DNA from: Patescibacteria group bacterium
GTDB taxonomy: Bacteria > Patescibacteriota > Microgenomatia > UBA1400 > PJMF01
Assembly (NCBI GenBank): GCA_016861205.1
Contig: BOKX01000001.1
Coordinates: forward strand, 895,835 to 959,834
DNA length: 64,000 nt
Reading direction: 5' to 3'
Shown here: positions 20,196 through 56,200 of the stretch, piece after piece
Layout of the letters: each line of letters opens with the position of its first letter
Numbering within the stretch: the stretch's first letter is position 1
Notes under the pieces: generated by a model
Told to the model about the DNA's origin: nothing
Database searches by the model: none
Seen by the model: only the letters and a program-made list of their open reading frames with translations
Program-made: the position numbers and the translations under genes

Positions 20196-20269
20196 GGGCC
20201 CTTAGCTCAGTTGGCTAGAGCGCCACATTTGCAATGTGGAGGCCAAGGGTTCGAGCCCCTTAGGGTCCA
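20196..20269 (+). tRNA. tRNA-Ala (anticodon UGC)
   Basis: Cloverleaf folds by eye. Acceptor stem GGGCCCU/AGGGUCC with discriminator A. D-arm GCTCAGTTGGCTAGAGC. Anticodon stem CCACA/TGTGG with loop TTTGCAA (anticodon TGC). T-arm GGTTCGAGCCC. No encoded CCA. Confidence 0.88.
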
Positions 20270-20480
20270 CAACTAACACAAGTCAAACACCGCTGACTGA
20301 ATTTCAGTTATCGCTGTTTGCTTTGTGCTCTACGGAGTGTCAAAGCAAAGTACCTGATTTTCAGGTGCTCCTTAACAAGTGAAGAAGAAGTCAGATCCAT
20401 GTGATTAGCATCACATGGATTAATAAACATACTTTGTTTATCTCAATTAATTTTATTTTTTGACTTAAGTAAAGTAGGTT

Positions 20481-23440
<2,960 letters not shown>

Positions 23441-23540
23441 TCAAGACTTGTTTGCTGCAAAAGTAACAAGTTTGACTTTTTCTTCACTGTTTTAGGAGCA
23501 GCTGCTCGGAATTCTTTCCGAGATCAGGTACTCAACTAAA

Positions 23541-23674
23541 GCGTTTGGTGCTGGTCTCTAGAGCGAGGTGGAACCAACTCTTCCCTTCCCGAACAGAGTC
23601 TTGAAACGCCTCAGCGGTGACAATAATTCCCGGGCAACTGGGTGTGAAGATAGCTCGAGGCCGGCACCAAGCGC
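23541..23674 (+). rRNA. rrf: 5S ribosomal RNA
   Basis: 5' GCGTTTGGTGCTGG pairs with 3' CCGGCACCAAGCGC. Internal CCCTTCCCGAACAGAG and AAACGCCTCAGCGGTGACAATAAT match conserved 5S loop C and helix IV regions. A T7 run (terminator) follows immediately. Confidence 0.75.
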
Positions 23675-24023: not shown

Positions 24024-27000
24024 CTAGATACCTAGATTTGCACCAGCCGGCATAGCCATGGGCTTTTCCATGACCAGAGACTGTTCTTGCGGCTTCTGGC
24101 GGGTGTCGAGTTGATCAAAACTCATGCCGGCGCCTTTTTGGACATAATCCGGATGTGTGACACTGAGCTGGTAAAGGCCTTTTGGTGCAAACAGTTGGTA
24201 TTTACCCCAGGAGTCAGTGATCGCGATAGCTGCGAGCTGATTAGCCTCGGCTCGTCCCAACCGGACCACCGCGCCTTTAATTGGTTGGCCAGCGGCAGTG
24301 GTAATCTTACCGCTGACAGCGGGAGGGGTCAGCCAGGTGCGTGCTTTCCAAGCTACTACAAGCGCGTTAGCAGCTGCAATTCCGATGTTAATTAATGATG
24401 GTGAAACTACGGCCATAACGATCGTAAAGGCGGATAATGGCAAGGCTACTTTGCCGAAGCTGAGACGAGTTGCCCAGCGTTGCCACCAGGGTAGGCGAGC
24501 TTCACTCTTCTGGCCAGGTTGGCGAGGGTCAACTGGTACCACAAACAACTGTTCTTCTCGAGCTGACTTAACACTGAACGGTTCACCCCGATAGAAATCG
24601 CGCAGGGTTTGGTAAGGTTGACGTGGGTGGCGACTGGGGAAACTATACTGCTGGTGGGCGGCCGCTAAGTTGTACGTGCCAGCCGGCAGTTTCACACCCT
24701 GGTACACACCTTTAGTGTCCGATACCACTGTCTCGGTGACGGGAGCTTCACCGGTTTTTGTTTCTTTGGTAACAGTCAGCAATGCAAATGGCACAGCCTC
24801 AAACTGTTGGCTGCCAAGGACCACTCCTTGAGGTGCATGGTGGGCTAAGAAGCCCATGGCTTGTAAGAAGCGAGTGAAAACGGTCCACCAAGATGGTTGG
24901 ACCACGGCCGCAGTGCTGGTGGCGGCTCCTACCGCCGAGCCAGCGGCAGCGCTGGCCCCACTTGCTACGGCTCCTCCTACCGCGCTTCCCACCGCTCCTG
25001 CGGCGGCAGTTACTGATCCAGCTGCGGCTACACTTGAGGCTATGACCGCCGTGGTCAAAGCCACAGAGGCAGCCACCGCGGTGGTGACAACAGCAGTGAT
25101 GACTATGAGTTCGGCTACAAGGGCGCTGACCGGGGCAACTGCTTTGGCTGCTTCAGTGACTGTTGCCACGATAGCTGCGACTTGGTTTGCGAGCGACTCG
25201 GTGGTGTCTTCAGTGGTTTCGCGAATGTCTTCAAGACTGGGCAAAGTCGGTGTAGGTGAGGGATCAACTGCGCCAATGTTGCCACCCTCACTGTCGAGTG
25301 GTTCTGTCGGTCCAGAGACGATGGGTGGGATTTCTCCTGGGGTGAGTACAGAGCCAAACGCGTTGTAAGAAAGATAGACAGTCTGGGTAGTGGTCTCATT
25401 ACCTGCATTGTCTCGAGAAATGATATTTACTCGATACCAACCATCAGTTAGTGGGAAGGGGGCGGCGACTGAGAAAGAGGCTGTCTTGGCGACGCCGTTC
25501 TCATCAGTCACGGACAGGTTATCAACATATGATGAGGCGTAGTCGGTGTAGACCGCACTGGGGCCCTGAGGGTCGACAGCATTCACCAGTTGTTGAATGA
25601 CCAAGCGAACTTTGTTCGGGCCGGCGGACACCTTGTCAAAGGTGTCTTGGCTACCGTTTGAGTTGTTGCGCGTGCTGCCTTCATATGGATCTCTGATTTG
25701 ACCCGAGAAGACCGGAATCCGGTTGAGCAAACTCATGGTGTACTCGCCACCGTTGGTGACTGAGCCAATGGTGTTGAGGCTGAGTCCATTGATGCTTGGC
25801 GCGGTGGTGTCGAGCTGAAACTCTGCCTGGACCGTCTTGAGGTTACCGGAGGTATCAAAAATATCAACTGTCCACTTGTGTTTACCCTGGGTGAGGCCAC
25901 CTTCGGTACCTAATTTTTTGAAGTAGACAGAGATCTCGTCGTTATTGGGGTCGCTGTCATTCTCATTGCGGAAAACAACTCGAACATTGTCATCGTCGCG
26001 CCAAACGTACTCGGCTGAGCCATTGCCATTGGCCGGGATATCACTGACCGAAAAGTTCCGGTTTTTGTCACCATCAAGTGTCACGGTGTAAGAGCCAACT
26101 CCACCCGTGGTGGTCGTTGATTTTGAGAAGGTGAGTGTTGGGGTGGTGTTGTTAATGGTTCCTGTTGCTGACTTGAAGTCAACACTGCCAGTGCCTTCCG
26201 CAGCGGGGGTCTCGCTGTCGCCAACTTGACTGATACCACCGGTGCCGGTCATGCCAGTAATGGCCCAGACCTGGAAGCCGTTAACAGTGGTGATGCTGGT
26301 ATCGGCATCTGCCTCAACTTTGGTGATGGCGCCAGCACAGTCTGCAGTCACTTGAGCCAGACTAGTGGCATTCGGACAGATGATGACTGACGTGTCACCA
26401 GCGGAGTAGGGAACATACAGCGTGTGGGTAGCGGCGGCACCGGGAGCTGAGGTCACATTTTCGATCACTGCTTTGCGATTGGTGGTGTCGACGTCACCAG
26501 CCACCGTTGACCAGTCTCGGTCGGTAGTTAGGTTGACCTCGATACTTGAGATGGGATAGCTATTGCCTGTATCAATAACTTGGACAGTTTCGGCACTATT
26601 GTTAACACCATTGCCGCTGCCGTAGGTGATGTTTGTGCCACTGGTAGTTTGAGCCTGGATTCCTGACAAATTGCGAATCTGATACAAACTCGCCAAGCGC
26701 TGAAAGAAGAAGAGGTTGGTTTCACCACTGCGGGTTTCTTCCCAGACTGCTCCCACGCTGCCAGTGCTGAGTCGAGCCATGGATGGTCGGCCAGTACCGC
26801 TATCCAGATCGAGGGTGGTGGTGGAGTCCCAGAGAAGTGTGCCATCGGTGCGGACGCCCTGTACAAAGTGGTGTTCAGCCACACTATCTGAAGCAATGAC
26901 AAAGATCCCGTTGTCACCATCTTCTTCCATCTCAATCAGACTGTTATGACCGAGCAGACTGATGGCACTCACGTCAGCTCCCCACACTGAAGTGAAAGAG

Positions 27001-28904
27001 TCGAAGTTATAGCGTTGGACCAAAACTTGTGTTTCGCCTTGAAACCAGGCCATGTACCAGGTATTGGCAGCGGTGCTACTGGTGTCCCGCTTAATGATGG
27101 CGCGATCGCCACTACTTGTAAAGTCATCTTCAACTTGAATAGCGGCACTCACGTCGCCAGGAGCGTAGATGCGGCGGGCCAGCAACTCGCTGGGGGTGGA
27201 GCTTTTGTGATACAGCACTGTCATGCCGCCGCCGTCATCAGGGACGTTGATCATGAATGGGAAAGAAGTGTCAACCTGAGCGCCGCTGTCAATGGAGACC
27301 CCATTTATAAAGCCTTGACTGATAGGATCATTGGGGTTGCCATCCTCACCCAAGCGGTAACCACGCAGGACATAGTCACTCGCCTCACCACGCTCGGCAA
27401 TGATGAAATAACCCATCGAGTCTGAGGCTGCTGACCAGAAGCCTCGCACATTGGAGATGAGAGAGAGCGGTGTGCCACCTGAACCCCATTGTTTTTGACC
27501 GTTGGTATTGAGGCGTTGACCCTCAATACTATCAGTATCAATATTGTGGGCAAAAACAGCAGCGCCATAGCCATCCATACCCAGAGTCAAGGTCATGTTG
27601 TCAGCATTATTTGAGTTCAGAGGGTTAAAAACCTGAACACCTTCGGTCAATGGTCCGGGCGTCGACAAGTTGAAAACAACCGTTCCCATCGACCAATCTC
27701 GAGCAGCAGCATAATCAGTACCTATGCCCCAACTGAAGGTTGTCGAGCCATCCGCATCGGTTGGCACGGTGTAGGTTGTGCTCACATGATCATAGTTTAG
27801 CCACAAGAAGTACAGTTCTGTGGCAGGTCGGGGAGAGTAGTTATTTACAAGTATGTCGTGCCAGGTGTTAATTTCATTTTCCGTGGTGAACTCACCCCAG
27901 GAAAGTGTCGACACAATAGCTTGATCGTTGAGTGTACTGTTGTCTGCAACAGTCGTAATGCCCGTTCCTGAAGGTCCACCACCTGTGCCACCATTAATAC
28001 AACTGGAAGAAGCAATAGGATCGGCAGCATCAACGTTGGTGAAGACATCAGCGGAAACATTGATGTCGGTTTCGCCAGTGACGCTATAGGTCACTGTTGA
28101 AGACACGACATCAGGGTTTGCTATGCCATAGAGCGAGACATGGGTGTAGTGGTCATTGGCAGCGTTGCTCCCAACATTACTACAGATTTCGGTTAACGGT
28201 GTGCCGTCCCAGAGCACATTATCAACCGAAGCCAAGCCATCGGTTGATTCGTAGGTAAGGGTGACATAAATGTATTGATCTACCGCTGTAACTTCGAGTG
28301 GAAGCGGATCAGAGTCGAAATAAGTGTGTGCATGTGAGCTGGTGACTACTCGACTATTTGACCACAGGAGGTCTCCAGTATTAAAGTCCAGCTTCTGAGC
28401 ATAGAACTCAGTATTATTGATTTGACCGTCGCGATTGGCCGACCAGGCAACGATCAAGTTGTTATCAGCATCTTTGACCGAGTCGGGGTCCCAGTCAGGA
28501 TACATGATGCCACCTGACCAACCGCCGGTAAAGAGAGTGGTGACCAAGACGCCACCTTCAGTCCAGAGAGCAGCGCCATCACTGTTGAAATGTTGAGCAT
28601 AAATATTGACGTCGGTGTTTATGCCATCGCGTTGCTCTTTCCAGACCATGTAGGCGCCACCATTGCCATCGGCAATCATCTTGGCAGGAGCGGAGTTGGC
28701 ATTGTAGGCTAGCGAGCCCCGAACATTAACGCCACCGTCCGGAGAAACCGGCACGCGAGTCACGACGGCCGCTGTCGCAGTGTTGACACTTGGCCCAATC
28801 AAAAGCCAAACCAGGCTAGCAAAAATAGCGAAGCGACGCCAAAGCTGATACCGAACTTTCCGCATAACTTTTTTACTATAACGCCTGGGTGTGGTGATAT
28901 ACAA
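24024..28904 (-). CDS. Giant cell-surface protein (1626 aa): N-terminal signal/anchor, large extracytoplasmic region, Ala/Val-rich TM cluster, two C-terminal carboxypeptidase-regulatory-like (CarboxypepD_reg) beta-sandwich domains
   Basis: N-terminus MRKVRYQLWRRFAIFASLVWLLIGPSVNTATAAV. Hydrophobic cluster AIVATVTEAAKAVAPVSALVAELIVITAVVTTAVAASVALTTAVIASSVAAAG. C-terminal ...KITTAAGQPIKGAVVRLG...ITDSWGKYQLFAPKGLYQLSVTHPDYV and ...TVVSDTKGVYQGVKLPAGTYNLAAAHQQY match the CarboxypepD_reg pattern. Confidence 0.75.
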   Translation of the reverse strand: MYITTPRRYSKKVMRKVRYQLWRRFAIFASLVWLLIGPSVNTATAAVVTRVPVSPDGGVNVRGSLAYNANSAPAKMIADGNGGAYMVWKEQRDGINTDVNIYAQHFNSDGAALWTEGGVLVTTLFTGGWSGGIMYPDWDPDSVKDADNNLIVAWSANRDGQINNTEFYAQKLDFNTGDLLWSNSRVVTSSHAHTYFDSDPLPLEVTAVDQYIYVTLTYESTDGLASVDNVLWDGTPLTEICSNVGSNAANDHYTHVSLYGIANPDVVSSTVTYSVTGETDINVSADVFTNVDAADPIASSSCINGGTGGGPSGTGITTVADNSTLNDQAIVSTLSWGEFTTENEINTWHDILVNNYSPRPATELYFLWLNYDHVSTTYTVPTDADGSTTFSWGIGTDYAAARDWSMGTVVFNLSTPGPLTEGVQVFNPLNSNNADNMTLTLGMDGYGAAVFAHNIDTDSIEGQRLNTNGQKQWGSGGTPLSLISNVRGFWSAASDSMGYFIIAERGEASDYVLRGYRLGEDGNPNDPISQGFINGVSIDSGAQVDTSFPFMINVPDDGGGMTVLYHKSSTPSELLARRIYAPGDVSAAIQVEDDFTSSGDRAIIKRDTSSTAANTWYMAWFQGETQVLVQRYNFDSFTSVWGADVSAISLLGHNSLIEMEEDGDNGIFVIASDSVAEHHFVQGVRTDGTLLWDSTTTLDLDSGTGRPSMARLSTGSVGAVWEETRSGETNLFFFQRLASLYQIRNLSGIQAQTTSGTNITYGSGNGVNNSAETVQVIDTGNSYPISSIEVNLTTDRDWSTVAGDVDTTNRKAVIENVTSAPGAAATHTLYVPYSAGDTSVIICPNATSLAQVTADCAGAITKVEADADTSITTVNGFQVWAITGMTGTGGISQVGDSETPAAEGTGSVDFKSATGTINNTTPTLTFSKSTTTTGGVGSYTVTLDGDKNRNFSVSDIPANGNGSAEYVWRDDDNVRVVFRNENDSDPNNDEISVYFKKLGTEGGLTQGKHKWTVDIFDTSGNLKTVQAEFQLDTTAPSINGLSLNTIGSVTNGGEYTMSLLNRIPVFSGQIRDPYEGSTRNNSNGSQDTFDKVSAGPNKVRLVIQQLVNAVDPQGPSAVYTDYASSYVDNLSVTDENGVAKTASFSVAAPFPLTDGWYRVNIISRDNAGNETTTQTVYLSYNAFGSVLTPGEIPPIVSGPTEPLDSEGGNIGAVDPSPTPTLPSLEDIRETTEDTTESLANQVAAIVATVTEAAKAVAPVSALVAELIVITAVVTTAVAASVALTTAVIASSVAAAGSVTAAAGAVGSAVGGAVASGASAAAGSAVGAATSTAAVVQPSWWTVFTRFLQAMGFLAHHAPQGVVLGSQQFEAVPFALLTVTKETKTGEAPVTETVVSDTKGVYQGVKLPAGTYNLAAAHQQYSFPSRHPRQPYQTLRDFYRGEPFSVKSAREEQLFVVPVDPRQPGQKSEARLPWWQRWATRLSFGKVALPLSAFTIVMAVVSPSLINIGIAAANALVVAWKARTWLTPPAVSGKITTAAGQPIKGAVVRLGRAEANQLAAIAITDSWGKYQLFAPKGLYQLSVTHPDYVQKGAGMSFDQLDTRQKPQEQSLVMEKPMAMPAGANLGI

Positions 28905-37007: not shown

Positions 37008-37036
37008 AGAAAAGTGAGGCTCCGGCCTCACTTTTT
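37008..37036. terminator. Bidirectional intrinsic terminator between convergent genes
   Basis: Stem GTGAGGC / GCCTCAC with loop TCCG, flanked by an A-run (GAAAAG) on the left and a T-run (TTTTT) on the right. It overlaps the stop codon of the minus-strand ATPase gene. Confidence 0.65.
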
Positions 37037-39112
37037 GGTAGCATAGCGTTCGCGACTGACTCGCAGGACTTTGTCACGGTTTGAGTTACGGTTCTTGGCC
37101 AGGGCGAGGGTCATAGCTGGGAAGGGATTTGAGATGATGTTGTCAATCGAGATCTTGTTCAAGATTTGATAACGACTCAGCGATACCAAGTCTTCTTGCG
37201 TGTATTTATCCCCATACTCCTTAGCGAACGCTTGTGCATCGTCAGCACCCATCACAAAGCTCACAATGCTGCCGCAGTTACCAAAAATGGCCTTCTGAAC
37301 TGTTTCTGGAATCTGGGCAATGTATTGATTGGCCAATGTTAAATTGAGCCGGTATTTGCGGGCTTCCGATAGGATTTTGATGAATGAGTCGGTAGCAAAG
37401 TTTTGGAACTCATCAACATAAAGGTAGAAGTCTTTGCGTTGGTCCTCGGGAATATTCACTCTGGCCATGGCAGCTAACTGAATTTTGGTGATTAACATCG
37501 CGCCCAGCAAAGTTGCATTATCTTCACCGAGTCGGCCTTGAGACAGGTTGACCAAAATGATTTTGCCCTGATTCATAGCATCCTCGATGCTGAAAGAACT
37601 CTTGGGGGCGTTGACGACGTTGCGAATCAGAGGGGAGGACACAAACTGACCAACTTTGTTCAAAATTGGGGCAATGGCCTCAGTGCGCTGCTTGTCCTGT
37701 AGCTTGTCGTACTCATTCACCCAGAAGTTTTTGAGAATGGGATCGTCTAGAGTAGAGACGATAGTATCGCGAAATTTTGGATCATTGAGTAAATCTAAAA
37801 TATCTGACAAACGGGCGCTCGGAGTTTTGAGCAATGTCAGCAGCGCATTTCGCAAAATGTACTCAAGCCTTGGTCCCCAGGAATAAGCATACAATTTTTG
37901 AAAGATCGACACGATGCCGGAGGCAATTAGCTCTCGATGGGCGACATTTTCGCCTTCAAAGAGATTAATCTTGACCGTCCGGTCAGGATCGGCCGGGTCA
38001 AAGTAGATAACGTCATTGATGCGGCGTGCTGGGATGTAGTCCAAGAGAGTCTCGACCAGGTCGCCGTGAGGGTCGATGACACACATGCCTTCGTCGTTCT
38101 TGAGGTCGTTAATGGCCATGTTGGCGAGGAGGGTGGATTTACCGGTACCAGTTTTACCAATCACATAGAGATGTCGGCGCCGATCGGCGCGCTGCAGACC
38201 ATACGCGGTCATCTGGCCCTTAAAGAGGGTGCGTGCGAAAGGATTAATTTCTCTTTTGGCCTCGGCCGACAGTTCTGAAGTCACAATTGGTAGTGTCTCG
38301 GGTGGTTCACCTAAGAGGTTTTTGCCCCAAGTTAAGTTGGGCAGATGTGCAAATCGCTTATCTGGGAAATGGTACAGCTTTGCCAAATCGAGTGCTGGTA
38401 GTGCGCGCCACTGCCACCAGTGCCCACGGCGTTCCACCACTCGGTGGCTTAGCCAGGTTTGGCCTGGGTTCCAGGCGTGCGCAACTTTGATACCAGGTGA
38501 ACCATTGGGGGTTAAACCTTCCAGAGATGCTTTGAGGTTTTCTAGTAAGAGCTTGGCTTGTTTGCCGTCTGGAGCACTGACCAACAGACGGCCTTGTGCT
38601 CGAGATTGCGTGGTGTGAGGACTGACCAGAAACTGGACAACAGCCTGATGAGTAGCGGGAATCTGACTCAAGGTGCCGACCAAGTTCAGGAGTGGATCAC
38701 TGGTGGCGGTGGGGGCTAGCTTGACGAGCCAGTCAGCCACTTGCGGCCAAGTGAAGTGGGCTGATCTGACTGCAGGTGACGATTCTTGCCCAAGTGGGGA
38801 TTCAAAAACCTGTACGATCGGATCGTACTCGAGCTCAGTAATCAAGGCTTCTGGAAAGCTGGTAGCAATCAGACCTTGAATGTAGTTTTTTAATCGAGTC
38901 GGTACCAACACCCCAAAACTAACCATTTGCCGGCTGGCGTAGATCTCCAAACTCAGTCGTTCATCTTGACCAAGCCACTCACGCCAAAACTGGTTTTTAA
39001 GGCGAGGGAGGCCAGATAGCCATTGGGTAGCTTGTTCTAAAGTATGCTCAGCAGATCTGGATGTTTTAACCTCAAGCAAGGCATGTGGCGCGCTCATACT
39101 ACTAGTATACAA
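37028..39112 (-). CDS. TrwB/TraD/VirD4-family (type IV coupling protein-like) P-loop ATPase, 694 aa, with no N-terminal TM segment
   Basis: Walker A VIGKTGTGKSTLLANM. The block that follows, GMCVIDPHGDLVETLLDYIPARRINDVIYFDPADPDRTVKINLFEG, parallels the TrwB VDPNGD...ILNPYD...WN.F arrangement. Confidence 0.65.
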   Translation of the reverse strand: MYTSSMSAPHALLEVKTSRSAEHTLEQATQWLSGLPRLKNQFWREWLGQDERLSLEIYASRQMVSFGVLVPTRLKNYIQGLIATSFPEALITELEYDPIVQVFESPLGQESSPAVRSAHFTWPQVADWLVKLAPTATSDPLLNLVGTLSQIPATHQAVVQFLVSPHTTQSRAQGRLLVSAPDGKQAKLLLENLKASLEGLTPNGSPGIKVAHAWNPGQTWLSHRVVERRGHWWQWRALPALDLAKLYHFPDKRFAHLPNLTWGKNLLGEPPETLPIVTSELSAEAKREINPFARTLFKGQMTAYGLQRADRRRHLYVIGKTGTGKSTLLANMAINDLKNDEGMCVIDPHGDLVETLLDYIPARRINDVIYFDPADPDRTVKINLFEGENVAHRELIASGIVSIFQKLYAYSWGPRLEYILRNALLTLLKTPSARLSDILDLLNDPKFRDTIVSTLDDPILKNFWVNEYDKLQDKQRTEAIAPILNKVGQFVSSPLIRNVVNAPKSSFSIEDAMNQGKIILVNLSQGRLGEDNATLLGAMLITKIQLAAMARVNIPEDQRKDFYLYVDEFQNFATDSFIKILSEARKYRLNLTLANQYIAQIPETVQKAIFGNCGSIVSFVMGADDAQAFAKEYGDKYTQEDLVSLSRYQILNKISIDNIISNPFPAMTLALAKNRNSNRDKVLRVSRERYATKK

Positions 39113-39279
39113 GAACTTCGATCGGCCGGATATGGACTAGAGGTTAGGGATTTGCAACGTTATTCACAATTCAAAACCGCGCAAATTACAATGTGGATAA
39201 TTTTACTTTAACTTGGGTGAAAGATACACATGTTTTATATATAGGACATATAAAAAATTAGATTACAATACGTTATAGG

Positions 39280-39308
39280 TTGACGAAGCCAAAACAGCTC
39301 GTTATACT
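39280..39308 (+). promoter_or_regulatory. Near-consensus sigma70 promoter (TTGACG-N17-TATACT) inside the AT-rich intergenic island
   Basis: -35 TTGACG at 39280-39285, a 17-nt spacer, and -10 TATACT at 39303-39308. It points toward a stable hairpin and a terminator, not toward a protein-coding gene. Confidence 0.45.
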
Positions 39309-39314
39309 TGATAA

Positions 39315-39433
39315 ACAAAACAACCCCGCCGTGGCGGGGTAGAGAGTAAGCCACTGGTTGATAGCCAGTAGCTTGAGACATAAAAAAAAGCATTATTATC
39401 GCTGGACAAACCACGAATAACAATGCTTTTTTT
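39315..39433 (+). ncRNA. Candidate small RNA (~120 nt), defined by promoter + internal GC hairpin + intrinsic terminator
   Basis: Downstream of the promoter are the hairpin CCCCGCCGTGGCGGGG at ~39324-39339 and a second imperfect hairpin GCCACTGG..CCAGTAGC. The terminator stem is AAGCATTATTAT / ATAACAATGCTT, followed by TTTTTTT ending at 39433. There is no ORF with a ribosome-binding site on this strand. Confidence 0.3.
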
Positions 39434-39542
39434 AGACAGTATCCATCATGTGTTAGCGAACGATGGACACTTAATGATTAGTAAGATTACAGATTAAGAA
39501 GCCGTTTGTAAACGACATCTTAATAGCTGTTCTTGATCTAAT

Positions 39543-39628
39543 CTGGATCAAAAAGGGCGTTGAGTGGAGGTTCGGCCGTTGGGCAGGCAGCCGAGCTTCC
39601 ATCCAGCGCCCCTTTTTTGGCAGATATG
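39543..39628. other. Long imperfect hairpin (~75 nt) flanked by A5 and T6 runs; a bidirectional terminator or structured RNA element
   Basis: Sequence AAAAAGGGCGTTGAGTGGAGGTTCGGCCGTTGGGCAGGCAGCCGAGCTTCCATCCAGCGCCCCTTTTTT. The inner arm TGGAGGTTCGGC pairs with GCCGAGCTTCCA (with G-U wobbles) and the outer arm GGGCG pairs with CGCCC. Confidence 0.4.
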
Positions 39629-39667
39629 AATCCTATAATATTGAAATTTGTCCGTTTATAGGGTATA

Positions 39668-40537
39668 ATGAGCACCCTAATGTCACATTTTGCCGTTTAC
39701 TCGGCTCAAATCATCCGGATTCGCTTTCCAAACCTGCGCCAACGATTATTGGGTGAGGTAGTACTTAGAGTGGTAACTGAGCCGATGTGGCCAGTTTTGC
39801 CACCTGTCCAGGCTACCAAACCAGCTGCCGTAGCAGCTTTGCCACGTTCAGTCAGCACAACCTGGCTGTCTGGCCTAGCTACATGGAAGCGGCGAGTGGG
39901 CCTGTTCCTATCTGGAATTCTCATTGTGATTGCCTTGGTTACAACCAGTTTTTGGGCAATTCCTGCCGTTTATTATCATTTTTTTCCAGCTGAGTCGGTG
40001 GCGATTGTGCCAACTGAGAGTAGTACCCCATTGGGAGGTGACTTCACGGCTGGTGCACAATCTGAACAGGTTTTAGCGAGTTACTTACCACCTCAAGATG
40101 AAACTCTGCCAGAGGGGCAGTGGATTGTGATTCCCAGAATCGGAGTTCGCACTGAGTTGCAGGCTGACGCTCAACCAGAAGAAGCCTTGGCTACCGGAGT
40201 CTGGATGGTGCCGGGATATGGCTCACCAGGCGACAAGACCCAGCCAATGATTGTGGCGGCCCACCGGTTTGGTTGGAAGTGGTGGTGGGAGAGTGACTAC
40301 TGGAAGTACCATTCTTTCTACTTGCTGCCGGATCTAGAACCAGGTGACACAGTCGAGATCATCGCAGATCAGCGCAAGTGGGTTTACGAGATTTATGCAG
40401 GCGAAGAGGGTGAGGAAATCACTGATTATCAAGCTGACTTGATTATGTATACCTGTAAGTTTTTGAACTCTCCGTTGCGACACTTCCGTTATGCCCGGCT
40501 ACTCGATCCGACCCAAGACTCCCAGAGCTTGAATTGA
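39668..40537 (+). CDS. Sortase-family transpeptidase (class E-like) with an N-terminal TM anchor
   Basis: TM helix VGLFLSGILIVIALVTTSFWAI. Catalytic-His region MIVAAHRFG. TLxTC-like Cys motif DLIMYTCKF. Conserved Arg downstream (RHFRYARL). Confidence 0.65.
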   Translation: MSTLMSHFAVYSAQIIRIRFPNLRQRLLGEVVLRVVTEPMWPVLPPVQATKPAAVAALPRSVSTTWLSGLATWKRRVGLFLSGILIVIALVTTSFWAIPAVYYHFFPAESVAIVPTESSTPLGGDFTAGAQSEQVLASYLPPQDETLPEGQWIVIPRIGVRTELQADAQPEEALATGVWMVPGYGSPGDKTQPMIVAAHRFGWKWWWESDYWKYHSFYLLPDLEPGDTVEIIADQRKWVYEIYAGEEGEEITDYQADLIMYTCKFLNSPLRHFRYARLLDPTQDSQSLN

Positions 40538-40662
40538 CGTTTGGGGGGAAGTGGGGTATACTACCCGTATCTTCAGTGTTTTTCAATTAAGTGTGAAGCA
40601 CCAATCTATATTTTCCACCTAGGCCTGTTGTAAAGAAAACACATCTGCACAGCTTTAGCTAA

Positions 40663-50202: not shown

Positions 50203-53200
50203 TTAGTTCAGTAGCCACCAGGTGAACTGGACGTCTCGGTCGGGCAGGGCGGTGTCAAAGCCGACCACGAACTGACCTTCTTTTTCAGAGGTGCTTGGGT
50301 TTTCAGGAGTGATTGACTTGACGTACAGGACTTGGTTGTTGGTTGAGCCGAGTGGGGTGACCTGGACGACTGTTTCACTGGTGATTTGCTCAGACTTGAT
50401 GACCATTTCGGTCTGGCCTTGTTTGACGACAGCCTTACCTGAGGTCTTGGTGGTTTCGGCTTGGTTCTCGTTACCACTCAAGTCTTGGGCGCCGACCCCG
50501 ATACCGCCAGCGAAGTTGGCGCGGCCGTCGGCTGAGATGGTGGCGACTGGGGTGCCAAGCTCGTCGACGATCTCGAAGCGTGACTCACGGACTTCGCCAG
50601 ACTCGGTGGCTACGCCAGCGACTTTGACTTGCAATGGGTTGGTGAAGTCAGTGGGTTGGATCAGATCAGTTAGGAGGCTGTCCTCAACAGTCACGGTACC
50701 AGCCACGGTTAGGTCACCCGTCACGATGACTTGGCCGTTTGACTTCAAGCTAAGTAAGCCAGCCATCATCGACAGCGTACCTTGGCCATGAGGTTGAATT
50801 TCAAACACGGTCTCGGCTGGGTTAGCAGAGTCTAAGTAGCTCAAGACACCATCGCTCAGCTGGGTACCTTCACCGATCAGCAGTTGGTTGGCAATGCCCA
50901 CTGAGTCACCGAAGTAGGCAGAGCCGTTGACCTCGAAGTAGCGGTTGATGAAGGCAGCATCGGCACCGATTGAGACGTCAGTGCTGGCTAAGTTGAGGTC
51001 GCTGAGTGACTTGTTCATGATGGCAGAGCCAGTGGCCGAGTAGCCAGCTTGGTCGATGACTGAGAATAGGGAGGCGACTGAGGCAGCGGTGGAAGCGTTA
51101 TCAGGTTCGCCGAGCAGTTGAGCCAACAGAGACGGTTTCTGAATGGCGGTGGCCACTTTGTCGTCAAAGCCGTCAATGTTGTCGGCGTACAAAGTGCCAG
51201 AGATGGTGGCGGTGATCAACTCAGCGGTGTCCGCCTTGATCTGTTCGAACTCAGCCACTTTGCCCTCAAGTGCAGCGATACGAGCTGAGGTGGCGTCGAG
51301 TTGACCGGAGATAGTAGCGGTACCACTGATACTGGCATTGTCACTCAAGAGTGAGCCTAGGCGAGAGGTGCCGTTGACAGTCAAGTCGCCCGCCAGCTGG
51401 GTGTTGCCTTGGTCGTCGATGCTGGCCACTGGTTGGTTGTTTTGGTTAGTGACCTGGAAGCGGTCATTGTTGTCACTCAGTTTGACGTTAACAGTGTCGC
51501 CAACTGGAGTGATGAGGTCAGTTTTAACCTCTGGAGTTTGGATGCGGACCTCAGCCAAGAGCTGGCGAGTGCGAATCACGCCGGCTTTTAGGTTGGCCAC
51601 GGCTAGTTCAGCAAAAGCATCAACTTTCTCGAGCAGATTGCCGTTGTAGCTGGCATTGTAGGTGGCGGTGGCCACAGGAGCGGAGTCATTGCCAGCGATA
51701 GTTACGTCACCGCTCGAAGTAATCCGGATGCTTGGGTCGAAGTAGGAGGTGTTAACAAACACCATGACTTTTCCGGTGCCGGCCTGTGGTTCGGGCAGAG
51801 GTTGACGCTCTGATGAACCAGCTAACCGATCCTGCTCAACTTTAAGTGTTCCAGCTGAGAGTTTATGGGTGCCATCATAAGCTTCAAGGGCATAGCCGAT
51901 AATTCGGCCGGCCTTGGTAGCTTTCATGGCCACACCTGGTTGACTGGCAGAGGTTAATGGATCGCCAACGGCAATTGGGCCATTTTCTAGACTGACCTTG
52001 ACTGGCACGCGTCCAACCAAGGCCACTGGTTGAGTATCAACCACTTCGCCGCCCTCAGTATCGCCCCATCCCGCTACTAATCCTGGGTCAGTGGAAATGA
52101 CGCCTACTACCATGCTGTCATAACTGACGCCTGAGCTCTTGCTTAGGGTTTTTCCAGGTTCAGCAACAGGTGCTGTGGTAATGGCTACCAAGTCACCCTC
52201 TTCAGCGTTGCCCAAAACTTTGTACATTTCGGCTACGTCAGCACCGCCACCGTTCCAGGCTCCATCAGCGTAAGCCTGACCATTGGTTTCAAGACGATAT
52301 TCATTGTCTGGGGTGCCGTCTTCGTCAGTTCGCAGTAGCATAAAGTACTCGTTCGCGGTGCCCACATCGTTGGTTGACCAAGCTGACATAACCTCAAATG
52401 TGCTAAGCAAGTGCGATCCAACACTGGTGCCCGTCGCCCCGAACGGTGTGCCACCTTCACTGGTTACCCACAATCGTGTTCCACCACCTTGAGTGGTGCC
52501 GATAGCCACCGAGCCATTGTTCCTGACTGACATGACGTGGCGGCCACTAACGCCTGCCCGGAAGATATCGCCACTACCATTGTTTTCAACTCGCAAGCCG
52601 ACACCACTGGTTGAGCCTGAGAAGGTGGCAATTGGTAGTGATGAGGAGTAACCACGAACATCAACAGCTCCCAGCAGATTAGCATTTGGGGTGTTAACAC
52701 CCATGCCACCACTGTTGGTGAGGACAAAGCGGGTGGTACCTGAGGCTGAGGCAGTAAACAGGTCACCATTAGACTCGGTTTGGTTAATGGTCAAGACAGC
52801 CTTGCCGAAGGCAGGGGTGTCGCCACCAGTTTGGAGGTGGAGTAAACCTAAGTATGATCGACTGTCACCGAGGATAGTCCGATTTGTGACCCCATCAATA
52901 TGGAGAGCGTAGGAACCGTTGGAGCCGGGGTCACTCAGGTAGTAGTTATTGAGGATAAACTCATCAGCGCCACTATCAGCTGAAATTTGCCATAAGTTAC
53001 CTAGCTCAGTTGCTCCATCATTGTGACTAAAGATGATGTTTGAGGCACCACCGTCAACTGAACTCATCTGGAACTCAGCGTACGGATCGCCACCAGCGAA
53101 GGATCGGAACATCATGGTGGCTCGAGTAGAAGCTCTCTCAAAGTGGAGTCCGTAGGCAGGGGCGGTAGTGCCGATACCCAGGTCACCGTTACCGAGCAAA

Positions 53201-56200
53201 GTCAGATCGGCCGCGTTGTCATTGTTGCGAACTTGGAAGACAGTTTCGGCGGCGGCCAAATCAACTACCCCGGTGCCCGATCGGCGGGCGCCAGTTAGCA
53301 TAATCATCGGTACAGTGTCTGTGGGGTTGGTAGAGCCAGAGTAGCCGCGCAGTTCGAGTGCCTGTGCGCCAGAGACTTGGTCAGCAAACCCAGTTAACAT
53401 GGCTCCACCGTTGGTGCCAGAGATTGCCCCGATGTGGAAGATGGTGTTCGTGGTGGTCACGCCAGTGATGCCGTGCGCCACATCAGCATCACCCATGGCA
53501 AAGGTGGTGTCACCCGAAGTGGTGACCAAGTGCAAGTTGTAGGTCGGGGCAGTAGTGTTGATGCCAACTCGACCGACGCCGTTAAGCGGGTTGAGATAGA
53601 TGTTGCCGGTAGTGGCGCCGCCAATGGTTATAGGTCGGCTACTTGTCGATCGAATGGTACCCCCAGATCCACCTAGAGTGATGTCACCAGAAATAGAAGC
53701 TGTTGGAAAACCACCACTGACGTTATTTAGGAAGGCAAAGTTAGCACTGTCAGTGGCTAAGCCACCAACTAGGAGGTCGAGCGTGTTGTTGGTGGGACTC
53801 AGTGCGCCCTGATACAGTCGCCAGTAGGCACCCAGCGAAGTTTCTGGGTTGGCCCAGGTGAGGGTGCCTGAACCGTTCGTCTGGAGAATGTAGCCAGCTG
53901 TTTGTGATGTTGGCCAGGTGTAGGCTAAGTTGCCAAAGACCGTCGTGCCATCTACTTCCAAGTCACCTTGAATGTAGAGATCATTGTCAGTGCTCATACT
54001 GCCGGAGGCACCAGCCGTTGAATCAGCCATCAGGTTGTAGTTCACCGTACTGCCATTACCGCCGATGTTCAAAATCGCATCAGCACCGAAGATGGCATCG
54101 CCAGCAATGTTAAGAGCGGTGCCAGTAGCAGCTGGGTCGAGATAGAAGGCTTCGTTAGCCATATCAGAAAAGCGCTGAGCGATGGCGTACCCATTAGTGT
54201 CAACTCGGAAGCGTGTCACGCCAGAAACTGAGGCTGACAGAATGTCGCCTGAGTTGAGCTGGTCGATGACCAGGGCCGCATTGGAGCTGTAGTTGCCAAC
54301 CACATGGAGATCTGCGTGGGGAGCGGTGGTGCCGATCCCGACGTTGCCATCTGAGTTAATATGAAGTCGGTCAATCCCACTAGTCATGAGGGCAACATCT
54401 GTCCATGAACCATGAGCTGCAAAACGGGCAGTGGTTCCCGAGAAATCAACTGTTTGTGCACCGCCGAGTCGGAAATCGGTGGAAGCGTTGACATATCCAT
54501 TGCCAGTAATGTTGCCGACGACTTGCAGCGCCTGGCTTGGACTCGTCGTCCCAATCCCGACGTTGCCACTGGGGAGAATGGTCATCGCGGTCGTCCCATC
54601 AGACACAAAACTCAGATTACCGGTGTTGGCGTCACCGAGTGTCAGAGTGCGCTGGTTGGTGGTGGCAATCACCCCAGCTGAGTTGAGCGTAATATTGCCC
54701 GAGATACTGGCAGTAGGTGTACCTGAGTTGACATTGATGAAGGCAAAGTCAGCGCTGCTCGAGGCGCTCCCGCCGATGAGCAGATCAGTGGTGTCGTTAG
54801 CGGGAGAGAAGGCACCATCAATGATTCGCCAGTAGTTAACAGCTTGAGAGGTGGAAGCGATGCCCACCCAGGTACTGCCATTATAGTAGTAGGGAATGTT
54901 GTCACCCGTGTTGTAGTACATCGAGCCGGCACCAAGTGCAGTCGGGTTTGAGCCAAAGTTGCCGATGCGTGTCTGGCCTGCAATCGAGACGTTTTGACTA
55001 AAGTTAAAGTAATCACTGGTCGTGTTGTAGCTCATGATGCCCTCATCACCGCTTGAGCCGATGTGGAGGCTACTGGGGCCAAGGTACAGATCTTGCCAGC
55101 GTAAGGTGTCGCTGCCCAAGTCGCGAGTGTCATTCCCATCGGGCAAGAGGTTGCCCACAATTTCCACGGTGCCAGCGGTCAGGCTAAGGGTGCCATCGAC
55201 ATCGTTGTCGATAGTTTCGCCGTTTTGGAATGAGATGTCGGTAGTGACGTCAGCGTCGGCGATGTTGATAGCGTTGACGATGCCACCGGAGATGTTACCG
55301 CTGTTGGTAATGTATATGGCATTTTGCACGACCGTTGAGCCTGTGCCTGAGGTATCTTGGTTGTCGAGTCGGAGAAGCGCAGTGACGTTGTTGTCGGTGG
55401 TGTTAGAAGTACCCATGTTTCTGACTTGAAGAGCGTACTCGGTGTTTCCAGAAGTTGATGGATTGTTGGTTAATCGGACATCAACCCCGGCCAGGTCCGT
55501 CGTGCCGCTACTGTTGCTGTTGGTAACGTTGAAAATGTTGGCAGTTATGCCGCCAGTCCCAGCTGGGTTATAGGTGGATGAAAAGTACGAGGCAATTCCG
55601 GTGGTCATAGTGTTGGAAATTACAGAGTAGCCAATTCCAGCTGTACCTGTGTACTCCTGTTGCCAGGGGTAACTTCCTTGACTCAGCAAGAATTGATTAT
55701 CAAGCGTGGGACTGTCAACGAACTCGGTGAAATCAATACAGTCGGTACAGCTGAAGTCGCTGGCGGTGACGGTAGCATTGGTAAAGTTGACCACAGTGCC
55801 ATCAGCTTCGAGGTTGCCCTCGATGTACAGGTCGTCGTCACTGTCCATACTGGCCGAAGCGCCGGCAGTTGAGTCGCCGATCACGTTGTAAGCCACGTCT
55901 GAGCCTGAGCCACCGACGTTGAAGGTGTTGGTATCGGTAAAGATCAGGTCGCCGCCACCGATATTGAGGGTCAGGTCACCAGTGGTGGTTTGGAGGGTGC
56001 TGGCTTGATAGAGAACTAGATTGCCGGCGTTACTTAAGCTCAGTCGTCGTGTGCCAGAAGCAGAAGCAGCCAGGATATCGTCAGAGCCAGTTTGATTGAA
56101 CATGGCTAGGGCGTTGCCAGCGGCATTTGCCGTGCCAGTGACGACAAATCTGCCCAGAGGTGCAGTGGTACCAAAACCAACGTTACCACCTCTAGTCATA

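Follow-up and report, generated by a model that had tools for sequence, protein, structure and literature searches.

A conserved chromosomal spacer upstream of rho in Patescibacteria with a predicted pair of opposed non-coding RNAs

The spacer described here lies in a window of 64,000 nucleotides (the whole stretch of Patescibacteria DNA that was analysed), between a T4CP-like ATPase ORF on the minus strand (37028-39112) and a sortase ORF on the plus strand (39668-40537). The original prediction had pictured an AT-rich intergenic island with a near-consensus promoter, a candidate small RNA of about 120 nt and a separate imperfect hairpin, and each of the sequence elements described lies where it had been placed, to within 1-2 nt. 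The spacer is indeed AT-rich, with a GC content of 0.34-0.39 at 39100-39500 versus about 0.50 across the window. The folding and covariation checks proposed at that time also came out positive: compared with shuffled sequence, the fold z-scores are -7.3 for 39313-39440 on the plus strand, -9.5 for 39310-39490 on the minus strand and -6.9 for 39540-39630 on the plus strand, and covariation was found in the two hairpins that we term modules A and C. The elements of the locus are as follows, where RNA-A and RNA-C are the predicted minus- and plus-strand transcripts; all promoters, RNA ends and strands in this list are predictions from sequence.

39160-39168, plus strand: DnaA-box-like 9-mer TTATTCACA, by sequence match.
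39192-39200, minus strand: DnaA-box-like 9-mer TTATCCACA, by sequence match, forming an inverted pair with the former.
39280-39308, plus strand: P(+), TTGACG-N17-TATACT, a sigma-70 type promoter with a predicted start site at about 39315.
39315-39547, plus strand: presumed leader of the RNA started by P(+), complementary to RNA-A in its first part (39315-39478) and continuing to module C.
39324-39339: perfect GC hairpin CCCCGCCGTGGCGGGG.
39323-39340 with a U-rich tail to 39314, minus strand: the same GC hairpin as a second, lineage-specific intrinsic terminator predicted for RNA-A.
39348-39374, minus strand: hairpin H3, lineage-specific, with 10 contiguous minus-strand pairs.
39383-39433, minus strand: module A, a conserved hairpin flanked by A8 and T7, the predicted conserved body of RNA-A.
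39390-39426: module A stem, GCATTATTAT/ATAACAATGC, with the T-run ending at 39433.
39438-39471, minus strand: hairpin P2 (H1), the predicted 5' hairpin of RNA-A, variable in sequence.
39512-39484, minus strand: P(-), with -35 TTTACA at 39512-39507, a 17-nt spacer and -10 TAATCT at 39489-39484; predicted start site at about 39478.
39548-39622, plus strand: module C, the predicted RNA-C core, a 75-nt hairpin of about 25 bp with loop GUUGGGCAGGC, then U6.
39578-39588, plus strand: module C loop GUUGGGCAGGC, 11 nt, G-rich and invariant.
39613-39618, plus strand: U6 run 3' of the module C hairpin.

The RNA element is found at approximately 95 related Patescibacteria loci, and in every relative for which the flanking sequence was covered the gene order is radA-[T4CP]-RNA-[sortase]-rho. 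The T4CP and sortase genes are optional at these loci; rho lies directly downstream of the element in the same orientation, with the sortase gene in between at some loci. A search anchored on the T4CP protein recovered 80 loci, 35 of which carry the element, and a metagenome search with a DNA pattern of module C recovered it at 64 of 67 loci; L068 is a chance match in GC-rich coding DNA, as are L086, L108 and L111 among the 67 metagenome matches. Because the metagenome pattern included the module C loop, invariance of the loop in that set is by construction. In the T4CP-anchored set, which was found without using the RNA sequence, the loop is exactly GUUGGGCAGGC in 35 of 35 RNA-bearing loci (leaving aside the chance match L068). 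Viral contigs gave no matches to the element, and a phage or viral source was rejected. We rejected the reading that it is tied to the T4CP gene, as an oriT or a T4CP leader, because many RNA-bearing loci have no such gene and the element does not accompany T4CP copies in other genomic contexts.

Both module A and module C show strong conservation between genera, and identity in module A, over 50 nt, stays at about 96% in loci whose T4CP proteins share only about 57%. The earlier view that the spacer is non-coding rather than protein-coding is supported. Only mechanical ORFs occur in it; their spans vary among relatives both in length (15-176 nt) and in sequence, and a toxin ORF, as in type I toxin-antitoxin systems, was not found among them. 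Altogether, we lean modestly towards the spacer being a chromosomal locus for non-coding RNA, conserved in a Patescibacteria lineage of the Microgenomatia type and read on both strands.

The plus-strand promoter P(+) is directly preceded by TATAGG (39274-39279). Its pattern occurs twice in the 64 kb, where 0.04 occurrences would be expected by chance, and it is kept as (T)TATAGGTTGAC-N17-GTTATACT in most related loci, 50 of 72 of which match a strict regular expression. From these figures, the near-consensus promoter of the original prediction appears to be real and conserved. Its distance from module A in relatives ranges from 15 to 176 nt. Upstream of its -35 element, at 120 and 88 bp, lie the two DnaA-like boxes, one perfect and one near-perfect, and about half of the 48 distinct loci compared have the same two boxes at constant offsets (-117 to -120, and -87).

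Such boxes in an AT-rich spacer, together with the terminator-like appearance of both conserved hairpins, could be taken to mean that there is no dedicated RNA at all, and that the spacer holds either terminators of the flanking genes and promoter repeats or a DNA element, for example, a replication origin or a DnaA-binding region. However, both flanking genes point away from the spacer and leave no incoming transcript to terminate; the stems covary with strand-specific G.U pairs, and the loops are invariant across genera. We give this explanation virtually no credence, as it is already contradicted by covariation and gene orientation. An oriC or DnaA-driven origin in particular was rejected because the GC skew has no inflection anywhere in the window: the cumulative skew rises monotonically across it, and only two DnaA boxes are present.

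The core of the family is module C, its most conserved element and the one with the best covariation support. This is the imperfect hairpin of about 75 nt that the original prediction had set beside the candidate small RNA; it is present, bracketed by A5 and T6 in the window, and it is no side curiosity. Its apex, G-UU-GGGCA-GG-C, sits on a nearly perfect 25-bp stem. In alignment A2 (82 distinct sequences), 96% of the stem cells are paired and 18 of the 25 pairs show compensatory changes, a level of pairing and covariation that was reached by 0 of 500 shuffles, with slid controls at 36-52%; in the GTDB-only alignment A1, 21 of 37 pairs covary. The G.U pairs occur on the plus strand only, the hairpin is more stable on that strand in 73 of 73 loci, and in the window it folds at -49.4 kcal/mol on the plus strand versus -39.1 kcal/mol on the minus strand. 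Many relatives have a U-run 3' of the hairpin, and in the window, with U6 on the plus strand, module C has the features of an intrinsic terminator, which does not explain the invariant loops. In our model, module C would form the 3' end and terminator of a plus-strand transcript, and its loop GUUGGGCAGGC is best modelled as the functional centre of the family.

Module A shows the opposite polarity. On the minus strand it reads A7-GCAUUGUUAU-U-CGUGGUUUGUCCAGCG-AUAAUAAUGC-U8, and it is the more stable on this strand in 72 of 73 loci. Its stem cells comprise 529 Watson-Crick pairs, 81 G.U pairs possible on the minus strand only, 11 possible on the plus strand only and 9 others, a strand signal that rests largely on a few conserved positions in sequences that are related to each other; at pair 10, 10 cells favour the plus strand. 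Covariation was found at four outer and three inner pairs. An unbroken minus-strand U-run of 5-9 nt, as required of an intrinsic terminator, follows the hairpin in 42 of 42 type 1 loci, and type 2 loci instead carry an extra hairpin with a minus-strand U4-7 run, which folds better on the minus strand in 13 of 15. Module A is therefore best modelled as the body of RNA-A and, in type 1 loci, as its putative terminator. A hairpin stands at the P2 position in all relatives that were folded, with an ambiguous strand preference across loci, and H3 acquires one C.A mismatch when read on the plus strand. The region 39314-39478 as a whole folds at -66.1 kcal/mol on the minus strand versus -54.3 kcal/mol on the plus strand.

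These polarities bear on the plus-strand small RNA of about 120 nt that had been proposed to contain the GC hairpin and to end in a terminator at 39433. A terminator scan called the GC hairpin, with its U-run, on the minus strand only, and by its sequence it is a minus-strand terminator; it is absent from most relatives. The bounds proposed for the small RNA are not supported as they stood, and that RNA is probably the mirror image of a minus-strand one. The terminator at 39433 may stand in part: its plus-strand hairpin and U7 are present, so that P(+) may yield some RNA stopping there in this genome, whereas the conserved module has its G.U cells on the minus strand (81 versus 11, as above).

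Between modules A and C, and pointing into module A, lies the conserved element TTTAC-N17-(TGn)TAnnnT that we designate P(-). Among 69 distinct loci, TTTAC is present in 69, the spacer is always exactly 17 nt with variable sequence, a TG at -15/-14 occurs in 53-58, and T1, A2 and T6 of the -10 hexamer are each kept in 62-63. These are the sequence features of a sigma-70 promoter (a -35 element, a free spacer of 17±1 bp, TAnnnT and an optional TGn), and we regard P(-) as a putative promoter. The same positions, seen on the plus strand as a central UA...GUAAA motif, were also considered as an RNA tertiary motif or a plus-strand promoter; these candidates were rejected, given the poor fit of a plus-strand -35 element and the unstructured spacer, and the minus-strand extended -10 reading was preferred because every invariant position fits it.

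One could still suppose that the locus makes a single structured plus-strand RNA of about 310 nt, from P(+) to module C, whose GGNCAGRC loops, one each in modules A and C and in the extra hairpin of type 2 loci, bind a protein, as a sponge of the CsrB/RsmZ type or as an RNP scaffold, the minus-strand 'promoter' then being an RNA motif or irrelevant. We consider this possible but unlikely. The retention of P(+) upstream of the whole unit would be expected of such an RNA, type 1 loci lack a conserved promoter near module C, the spacings are fixed (GTAAA-N4-ATCTT-N25-ATCA), and the loops of module A (GCUGGACAGAC) and module C (GUUGGGCAGGC) are similar on the same strand, with a third loop, GGCAGGC, in type 2 loci. 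However, module A and the extra type 2 hairpin are systematically weaker on the plus strand, where A.C and tandem C.A/A.C mismatches are kept across lineages, and the A-run 5' of both hairpins, which has no role on the plus strand, becomes the U-run of a terminator on the minus strand. In addition, what stays invariant between the modules coincides exactly with TTTAC, N17 and (TG)n-T1/A2/T6 of the minus strand; as these positions flank an unstructured, variable spacer, they constitute a promoter signature at the DNA level rather than an RNA fold.

The original prediction can also be extended: a plus-strand RNA (39315-39433) and a minus-strand RNA (39478-39383) would share module A as a bidirectional terminator, and module C would be promoted separately. 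P(+) and P(-) do converge on module A, whose flanks are A8 and T7 in the window and A/T runs at the type 1 loci. An extended -10 element of the TGTATAAT type precedes module C by approximately 35 nt at some type 2 loci and at a few of type 1, which suggests a separate RNA-C promoter in the loci that carry it. In the window, however, no promoter-like site is present at 39513-39547, and offset statistics revealed no conserved plus-strand promoter close to module C in type 1 loci. The plus-strand run after module A (4-8 U in type 1 loci) is degenerate in many loci, such as GCCTTTATCA in L087; in L007, L009 and L048 only 15-37 nt separate the -10 element from module A, which would leave a plus-strand RNA of hardly more than the hairpin. 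Moreover, three mini loci (L081, L101 and L116) lack module A and have P(+) directly upstream of module C, so that P(+) would serve module C there and RNA-C would be a single long hairpin of about 85-110 nt; these loci predict that RNA-A can disappear from a locus that retains RNA-C. Considering these points, we judge the shared-terminator arrangement distinctly improbable. In type 1 loci, since no nearby promoter was found, RNA-C would depend on read-through of module A.

The constant position of the element upstream of, and co-oriented with, rho, sometimes with the sortase gene in between, raises the question of whether it is a cis-regulatory leader or attenuator of a sortase/rho operon, with module C as a regulated terminator in the manner of pT181/pIP501 or of Rho autoregulation. 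The layout of a sense promoter, an internal antisense promoter and a terminator is that of attenuation systems, and the U-run after module C often overlaps the rho -35 element. We nevertheless hold this to be very unlikely, as both rho and the sortase gene have their own near-consensus promoters immediately 3' of module C, a simple attenuator would not be expected to keep an invariant 11-nt loop in its terminator, and several loci lack a U-run after module C. Pairing between the leader and the arms of module C, as an antiterminator would show, was not found across 69 loci (z = -0.28 and 0.15 versus shuffled sequence).

The arrangement that we judge somewhat likelier to be right than wrong is one in which a minus-strand RNA-A of about 96-165 nt is antisense to the leader of a plus-strand RNA-C of about 310 nt, the two being linked by RNA-RNA control. 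P(+) would start the plus-strand transcript near 39315, and this would end with the module C hairpin and U6. The existence of its leader is suggested by the conservation of P(+), by the mini loci in which P(+) precedes module C and by the lack, in type 1 loci, of a conserved plus-strand promoter in the interval from P(-) to module C. P(-) would start RNA-A near 39478. With P2 and module A inside it, RNA-A would measure about 96 nt if it stops at the U8 that follows module A; termination at the GC hairpin, in this genome, would lengthen it to about 165 nt. The promoter signatures and strand-specific structures on opposite strands would thus give an overlap of 96-165 nt. As RNA-A would overlap the plus-strand leader from the opposite strand with full complementarity, it can be described as a candidate countertranscript.

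The loops of the two RNAs provide a possible point of contact, as the module A loop GUUUGUCCAGC of RNA-A would be able to pair with all 11 nt of the module C loop. The best site for the RNA-C loop within RNA-A is the module A loop in about 40 of 73 loci (11 bp, -19.4 kcal/mol), and L113, L122 and L137 allow a longer duplex of 14-15 bp (-25 to -28 kcal/mol). In type 2a loci, the loop of the extra hairpin contains GCCUGCC. The complementarity is weaker in L084, L098 and L121 and is missing in type 2b loci (z of about 0), the complementary 11-mer is partly buried in a 3-bp inner helix of module A, and the relationship is described equally well as a same-strand repeat of the motif GYUGGRCAGRC. RNA-A would pair with the plus-strand transcript, in cis along the stretch of DNA that they share or in trans through kissing loops, and this would set the level of free RNA-C loop or the processing or termination of the plus-strand transcript just upstream of the rho promoter. 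RNA-RNA control is the most likely mode of action. The sequence comparisons establish the conservation, the two structures with their opposite polarity, both promoter signatures and the complementarity, whereas the synthesis of both RNAs, their interaction and its regulatory output are inferred.

No known RNA family was recognized at the locus. The window was searched with the 4227 covariance models of Rfam 15 in both gathering-threshold and E-value modes. At gathering thresholds the whole window yielded 23S, 5S and tRNA-Ala only, none of them inside the spacer, and twelve related loci gave no match; the E-value mode returned only chance-level matches on the window, one type 2 and one type 2b locus. 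ARAGORN found tRNA-Ala at 20196-20270 and no tmRNA in the window. The SRP models gave no match even at E<=10 in searches of 0.6-1 kb, and neither did the 6S and RNase P models, the spacer having the architecture of a series of independent hairpins; 6S RNA is a rod with a central bubble in which the two ends pair, and RNase P RNA is marked by the P4 pseudoknot with its CR-I/CR-V sequences. The earlier judgement by eye that nothing here matches SRP, 6S, tmRNA or RNase P is borne out by the Rfam and ARAGORN scans. SRP-like, RNase P-like, tRNA D-loop-like and hammerhead-like resemblances seen by eye were rejected, as the defining structures are lacking. The best sub-threshold matches, at 20-29 bits versus gathering thresholds of 42-75, were MicX (RF01808), IstR (RF01400) and GcvB (RF00022), all on the minus strand at 39314-39484. 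Like the spacer, those families show a row of hairpins with a GC hairpin and a U-run at the end, but the likeness is one of shape and terminator only, and they are proteobacterial.

Among known systems, the plasmid countertranscript modules (ColE1 RNA I/RNA II, R1 CopA/CopT and pT181/pIP501 RNAIII) share with the proposed RNA pair a short structured RNA from an internal promoter on the opposite strand that covers the 5' portion of a longer transcript and stops near the start of the latter, complementary loops suited to kissing, and a sense terminator hairpin downstream. In contrast to them, the locus is chromosomal and syntenic (radA...rho) and involves neither a rep gene nor an origin. An antiterminator was not found, the overlap does not include the target loop in module C, the genes downstream are served by promoters of their own, and no Rfam countertranscript family matched. 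In pAD1 par, RNA I and RNA II are convergent RNAs that share a bidirectional terminator, and here too a single hairpin between A- and T-runs is faced by a promoter on either side, but there is no toxin ORF and the interval between P(+) and module A is variable, down to 15 nt. The predicted RNA-C of the mini loci resembles 4.5S RNA (RF00169) in being one long hairpin with an invariant apex, its own promoter and a terminator, present in one copy per locus in a housekeeping neighbourhood; it differs in having neither a GNRA tetraloop nor symmetric or asymmetric internal loops, and its stem is almost perfectly paired. As in CsrB, RsmY and RsmZ, a similar loop motif (GGNCAGRC) recurs, on one strand, in two or three hairpins, but the motif is not GGA and the hairpins are of opposite strand polarity; the sole Rsm-related match was an 18-nt terminator at 12 bits.

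In summary, the spacer is a previously undescribed non-coding RNA locus of CPR bacteria that belongs to no Rfam family, and our literature search found no description of lineage-specific non-coding RNAs in CPR/Patescibacteria or of such an RNA. It combines two covariation-supported structures of opposite polarity, two promoter signatures, a fixed place beside rho and DnaA boxes at fixed offsets. As CPR genomes are tiny, non-coding sequence that is so strongly conserved is likely to be important. The locus also illustrates that, between divergent genes, hairpins with the look of terminators can form the functional core of an RNA gene. Should both RNAs be made and interact, they would represent a conserved chromosomal pair of small RNA and anti-small RNA in bacteria whose RNA regulators are essentially uncharted, and their defined sequences, loops and predicted ends would offer a handle for metatranscriptomic and biochemical tests. 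A more far-reaching reading, which we regard as a long shot, is that RNA-C, with its invariant loop, is a lineage-wide and possibly essential RNA of a new RNP or riboregulatory circuit in Microgenomatia-type CPR bacteria, titrated by RNA-A, wired to DnaA by the two boxes at constant offsets from P(+) and placed next to the rho promoter; if true, it would tie the termination of transcription to the state of replication in these ultra-small bacteria by a new RNA-based route.

The spacer between the divergent T4CP/VirD4-like and sortase genes is AT-rich (GC 0.34-0.39 versus ~0.50 for the window), lies among housekeeping genes (RadA, Rho, M23 peptidase and Obg) and folds with a stability far above that of shuffled sequence (z-scores -6.9 to -9.5). 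The elements listed in the original prediction are all present, namely a promoter, a GC hairpin (39324-39339), an A8/T7-flanked hairpin (39383-39433) and a long hairpin (39548-39622), so the observation is confirmed; its interpretation is partly supported. The spacer very probably does encode small RNA, as had been claimed.

Features of the spacer and its flanks (positions in the window)
37028-39112, minus strand: T4CP/VirD4-like gene, divergent, left of the spacer
39113-39667: spacer between the T4CP/VirD4-like gene and the sortase gene
39160-39168, plus strand: DnaA-box-like 9-mer TTATNCACA, inverted pair with the second box
39192-39200, minus strand: DnaA-box-like 9-mer TGTGNATAA, inverted pair with the first box
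39383-39433: module A
39512-39507 (-35) and 39489-39484 (-10), minus strand: predicted promoter P(-), pointing into hairpin P2 (39438-39471) and module A
39548-39622: module C
39668-40537, plus strand: sortase gene, right of the spacer

A search by T4CP protein led to related loci in Patescibacteria (CPR) genomes, which carry the labels Pacebacteria, Woesebacteria or Microgenomates and share the gene order radA-[T4CP]-spacer-[sortase]-rho-M23-obg. When the spacer was compared by blastn with 80 T4CP-anchored loci, module A was ~96% identical and module C (39559-39607) ~88% identical where T4CP was only 55-60% identical. The 11-mer GTTGGGCAGGC occurs in exactly one copy in each of 35 of these 80 loci; a 36th match, in locus L068, was attributed to chance in GC-rich DNA. 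When metagenome contigs were searched with a DNA pattern derived from module C, 67 matched, three of them by chance; viral contigs gave no match. Metagenome loci with enough flank have the same context as the T4CP-anchored relatives; many lack T4CP (radA-RNA-rho), and the sortase gene is optional. Because T4CP is often missing and its copies in other contexts have no RNA element, the element belongs to the radA...rho interval and not to T4CP. The original prediction had proposed an Rfam scan together with folding and covariation checks: no Rfam family matches any structural type of locus, the folds are stable, and compensatory changes occur in both modules. The family itself is missing from Rfam, and no description of the locus was found in the literature searched; its kind, a structured small RNA with a countertranscript, is known. 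Taken together, we consider it very probable that this is a conserved RNA locus on which selection acts at the RNA level.

The long hairpin, module C, proves to be the central element of the locus and not an accessory. Its 25-pair hairpin is 96% paired, with compensatory changes at 18 pairs among 82 distinct sequences; none of 500 shuffles reached these values, slid controls were only 36-52% paired, and a GTDB-only alignment showed compensatory change at 21 of 37 pairs. The plus-strand fold is the more stable in 73/73 loci (mean -36.0 versus -24.3 kcal/mol), because G.U pairs are frequent. The loop, G-UU-GGGCA-GG-C, is invariant; this counts as independent evidence in the T4CP-anchored set alone, as the metagenome loci were retrieved by a pattern containing the loop. 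A covarying Y-R pair and a mismatch, usually N.A, flank it, and a U-run follows the hairpin in many loci.

Structural variants of the RNA locus (L numbers denote related loci)
Mini loci (L081, L101, L116): P(+) and module C only
Type 2a loci (L010, L011, L016, L018, L022, L026, L041): extra minus-strand terminator hairpin with loop GCCUGCC
Type 2b loci (L012, L014, L015, L017, L025, L035, L043, L046, L076): extra minus-strand terminator hairpin with loop GACUGCC

In the mini loci, the plus-strand promoter P(+) is followed by 36-60 nt and then by module C with its U-run, without module A and P(-); this makes module C the family's core, with P(+) as its predicted promoter at least in these loci. 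The call of P(+) as TTGACG-N17-TATACT at 39280-39308 was right: the pattern has 2 matches in 64 kb against 0.04 expected, and it is conserved upstream of the unit in related loci as (T)TATAGGTTGAC-N17-GTTATACT. Type 2b loci carry the variant TTGAAA-N16-TATAAT and a conserved plus-strand TSS-proximal AGUUCUUUAA. Module A lies 15 to 176 nt from P(+), depending on the locus, and the GC hairpin and hairpin H3 (39348-39374) of the window are therefore lineage-specific. No conserved plus-strand promoter was found near module C in type 1 loci; TGTATAAT lies ~35 nt upstream of module C in type 2 and a few type 1 loci. A TATAGG(AC) box (39240-39247) also lies 34 bp upstream of a TATAGG (39274-39279) abutting the P(+) -35, and such paired boxes recur in many related loci (TATAAGAC / TATAGGAC ... 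TATAGGTTGAC); a regulator may bind them, or they may serve as -10 elements for the leftward (T4CP) promoter.

The GC hairpin and the 'terminator', module A, had been assigned to the plus strand, which is most likely the reverse of their true polarity. Terminator prediction picks out the GC hairpin on the minus strand only, and the whole block 39314-39478 prefers that strand (-66.1 versus -54.3 kcal/mol). Across 63 distinct sequences, the cells of the 10-bp module A stem comprise 529 Watson-Crick pairs, 81 minus-only G.U, 11 plus-only and 9 others; four outer and three inner pairs covary. In 72/73 loci the minus strand gives module A its more stable fold, and an unbroken U5-9 run follows it 3' on that strand in all 42 type 1 loci. 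Type 2 loci differ: module A has no A/U runs there, and next along the minus strand comes an additional long hairpin (AUCCAYC...GRUGGAU) and its U4-7 run; this hairpin has its better fold on the minus strand in 13 of 15 loci.

Between modules A and C, the only invariant plus-strand positions are A-N3-TA and GTAAA, at constant distance, separated by sequence that varies and often lacks structure. On the minus strand these positions read TTTAC (69/69), a spacer 17 nt long in every case, then TG (53-58/69), one nucleotide and T-A-N3-T (62-63/69), which makes a putative extended -10 sigma-70 promoter. The positions of this promoter, P(-), in the window predict a start near 39478. The three best sub-threshold Rfam matches, MicX, IstR and GcvB (20-29 bits), map without exception to the minus strand at 39314-39484, exactly the interval predicted for the minus-strand RNA; these scores are chance-level and reflect a shared multi-hairpin-plus-terminator shape.

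We lean modestly towards a model, drawn from sequence, in which two RNAs are made. P(+) would drive a plus-strand transcript from ~39315 to ~39618 ending in module C (RNA-C), and P(-) would drive a minus-strand RNA from ~39478 to ~39383 and/or 39314 (RNA-A); these boundaries differ from those of the ~120-nt plus-strand transcript of the original prediction. RNA-A would be antisense to the leader of the plus-strand transcript, and its loop would match that of RNA-C. On the minus strand, the loop of module A (consensus GUCUGUCCAGC; GUUUGUCCAGC in the window) is complementary to GUUGGGCAGGC over its full 11 nt, with 8 Watson-Crick and 3 G.U pairs for the consensus sequence and 7 and 4 for that of the window, and is the best site for the RNA-C loop within RNA-A in ~40/73 loci (-19.4 kcal/mol). 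A U-to-C change in L008 improves the complementarity, and the duplex reaches 14-15 bp in L113, L122 and L137. The extra hairpin loop of type 2a loci carries GCCUGCC in place of the module A match. The complementarity is weakened in L084, L098 and L121, and type 2b loci have none of significance to the RNA-C loop. Because the complementarity may also be described as one loop motif repeated on the same strand, we infer a functional RNA-A/RNA-C interaction only tentatively.

A near-consensus promoter lies directly after module C for each of sortase and rho, and in rho-adjacent loci its -35 TTGACA overlaps the U-run. The plus-strand leader has no excess complementarity to either module C arm relative to shuffled sequence (z about 0); a classical attenuator is therefore unlikely. 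The best promoter-like site of the spacer, TTGAAA-N17-TATAAT (11/12, 39641-39669), has a -10 overlapping the called sortase ATG at 39668, and in L027 the -10 is similarly close to the ATG; the sortase mRNA may be leaderless from an in-frame ATG at 39680, or its start may be mis-called. In the window, at 40534-40662, the rho gene has its own TTGACG-N17-TATACT promoter and a ~100-200 nt leader; in several relatives this leader is pyrimidine-rich, for example CAUUCCCUUCGGACU (downstream of module C in L087, L099, L103 and L135), recalling the leaders of Rho autoregulation. At its N terminus the Rho ORF as called (505 aa) carries an extension of ~90 aa, which may be an over-call. Elsewhere in the window, tRNA-Ala, 23S and 5S rRNA lie at 20196-23666 with protein ORFs directly upstream and no 16S rRNA anywhere in the 64 kb, and the rRNA operon appears unlinked; two very large ORFs occupy the minus strand (50203-63636, 4477 aa; 24024-28904, 1626 aa).

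A replication origin in the spacer was excluded, as cumulative GC skew climbs steadily from one end of the window to the other. DnaA-like boxes lie at fixed offsets (-117 to -120 and -87) from the P(+) -35 in about half of 48 distinct loci (L002, L005-L009, L048, L085, L099, L102, L127 and others), some of them without T4CP, and a perfect TTATCCACA occurs in nine loci. This pattern suggests that DnaA, or a factor of similar specificity, regulates the RNA locus. With ColE1 RNA I/II and pT181/pIP501, the proposed two-RNA layout shares the arrangement of a countertranscript system; it differs in lying on the chromosome among housekeeping genes, with neither a rep gene nor an antiterminator.
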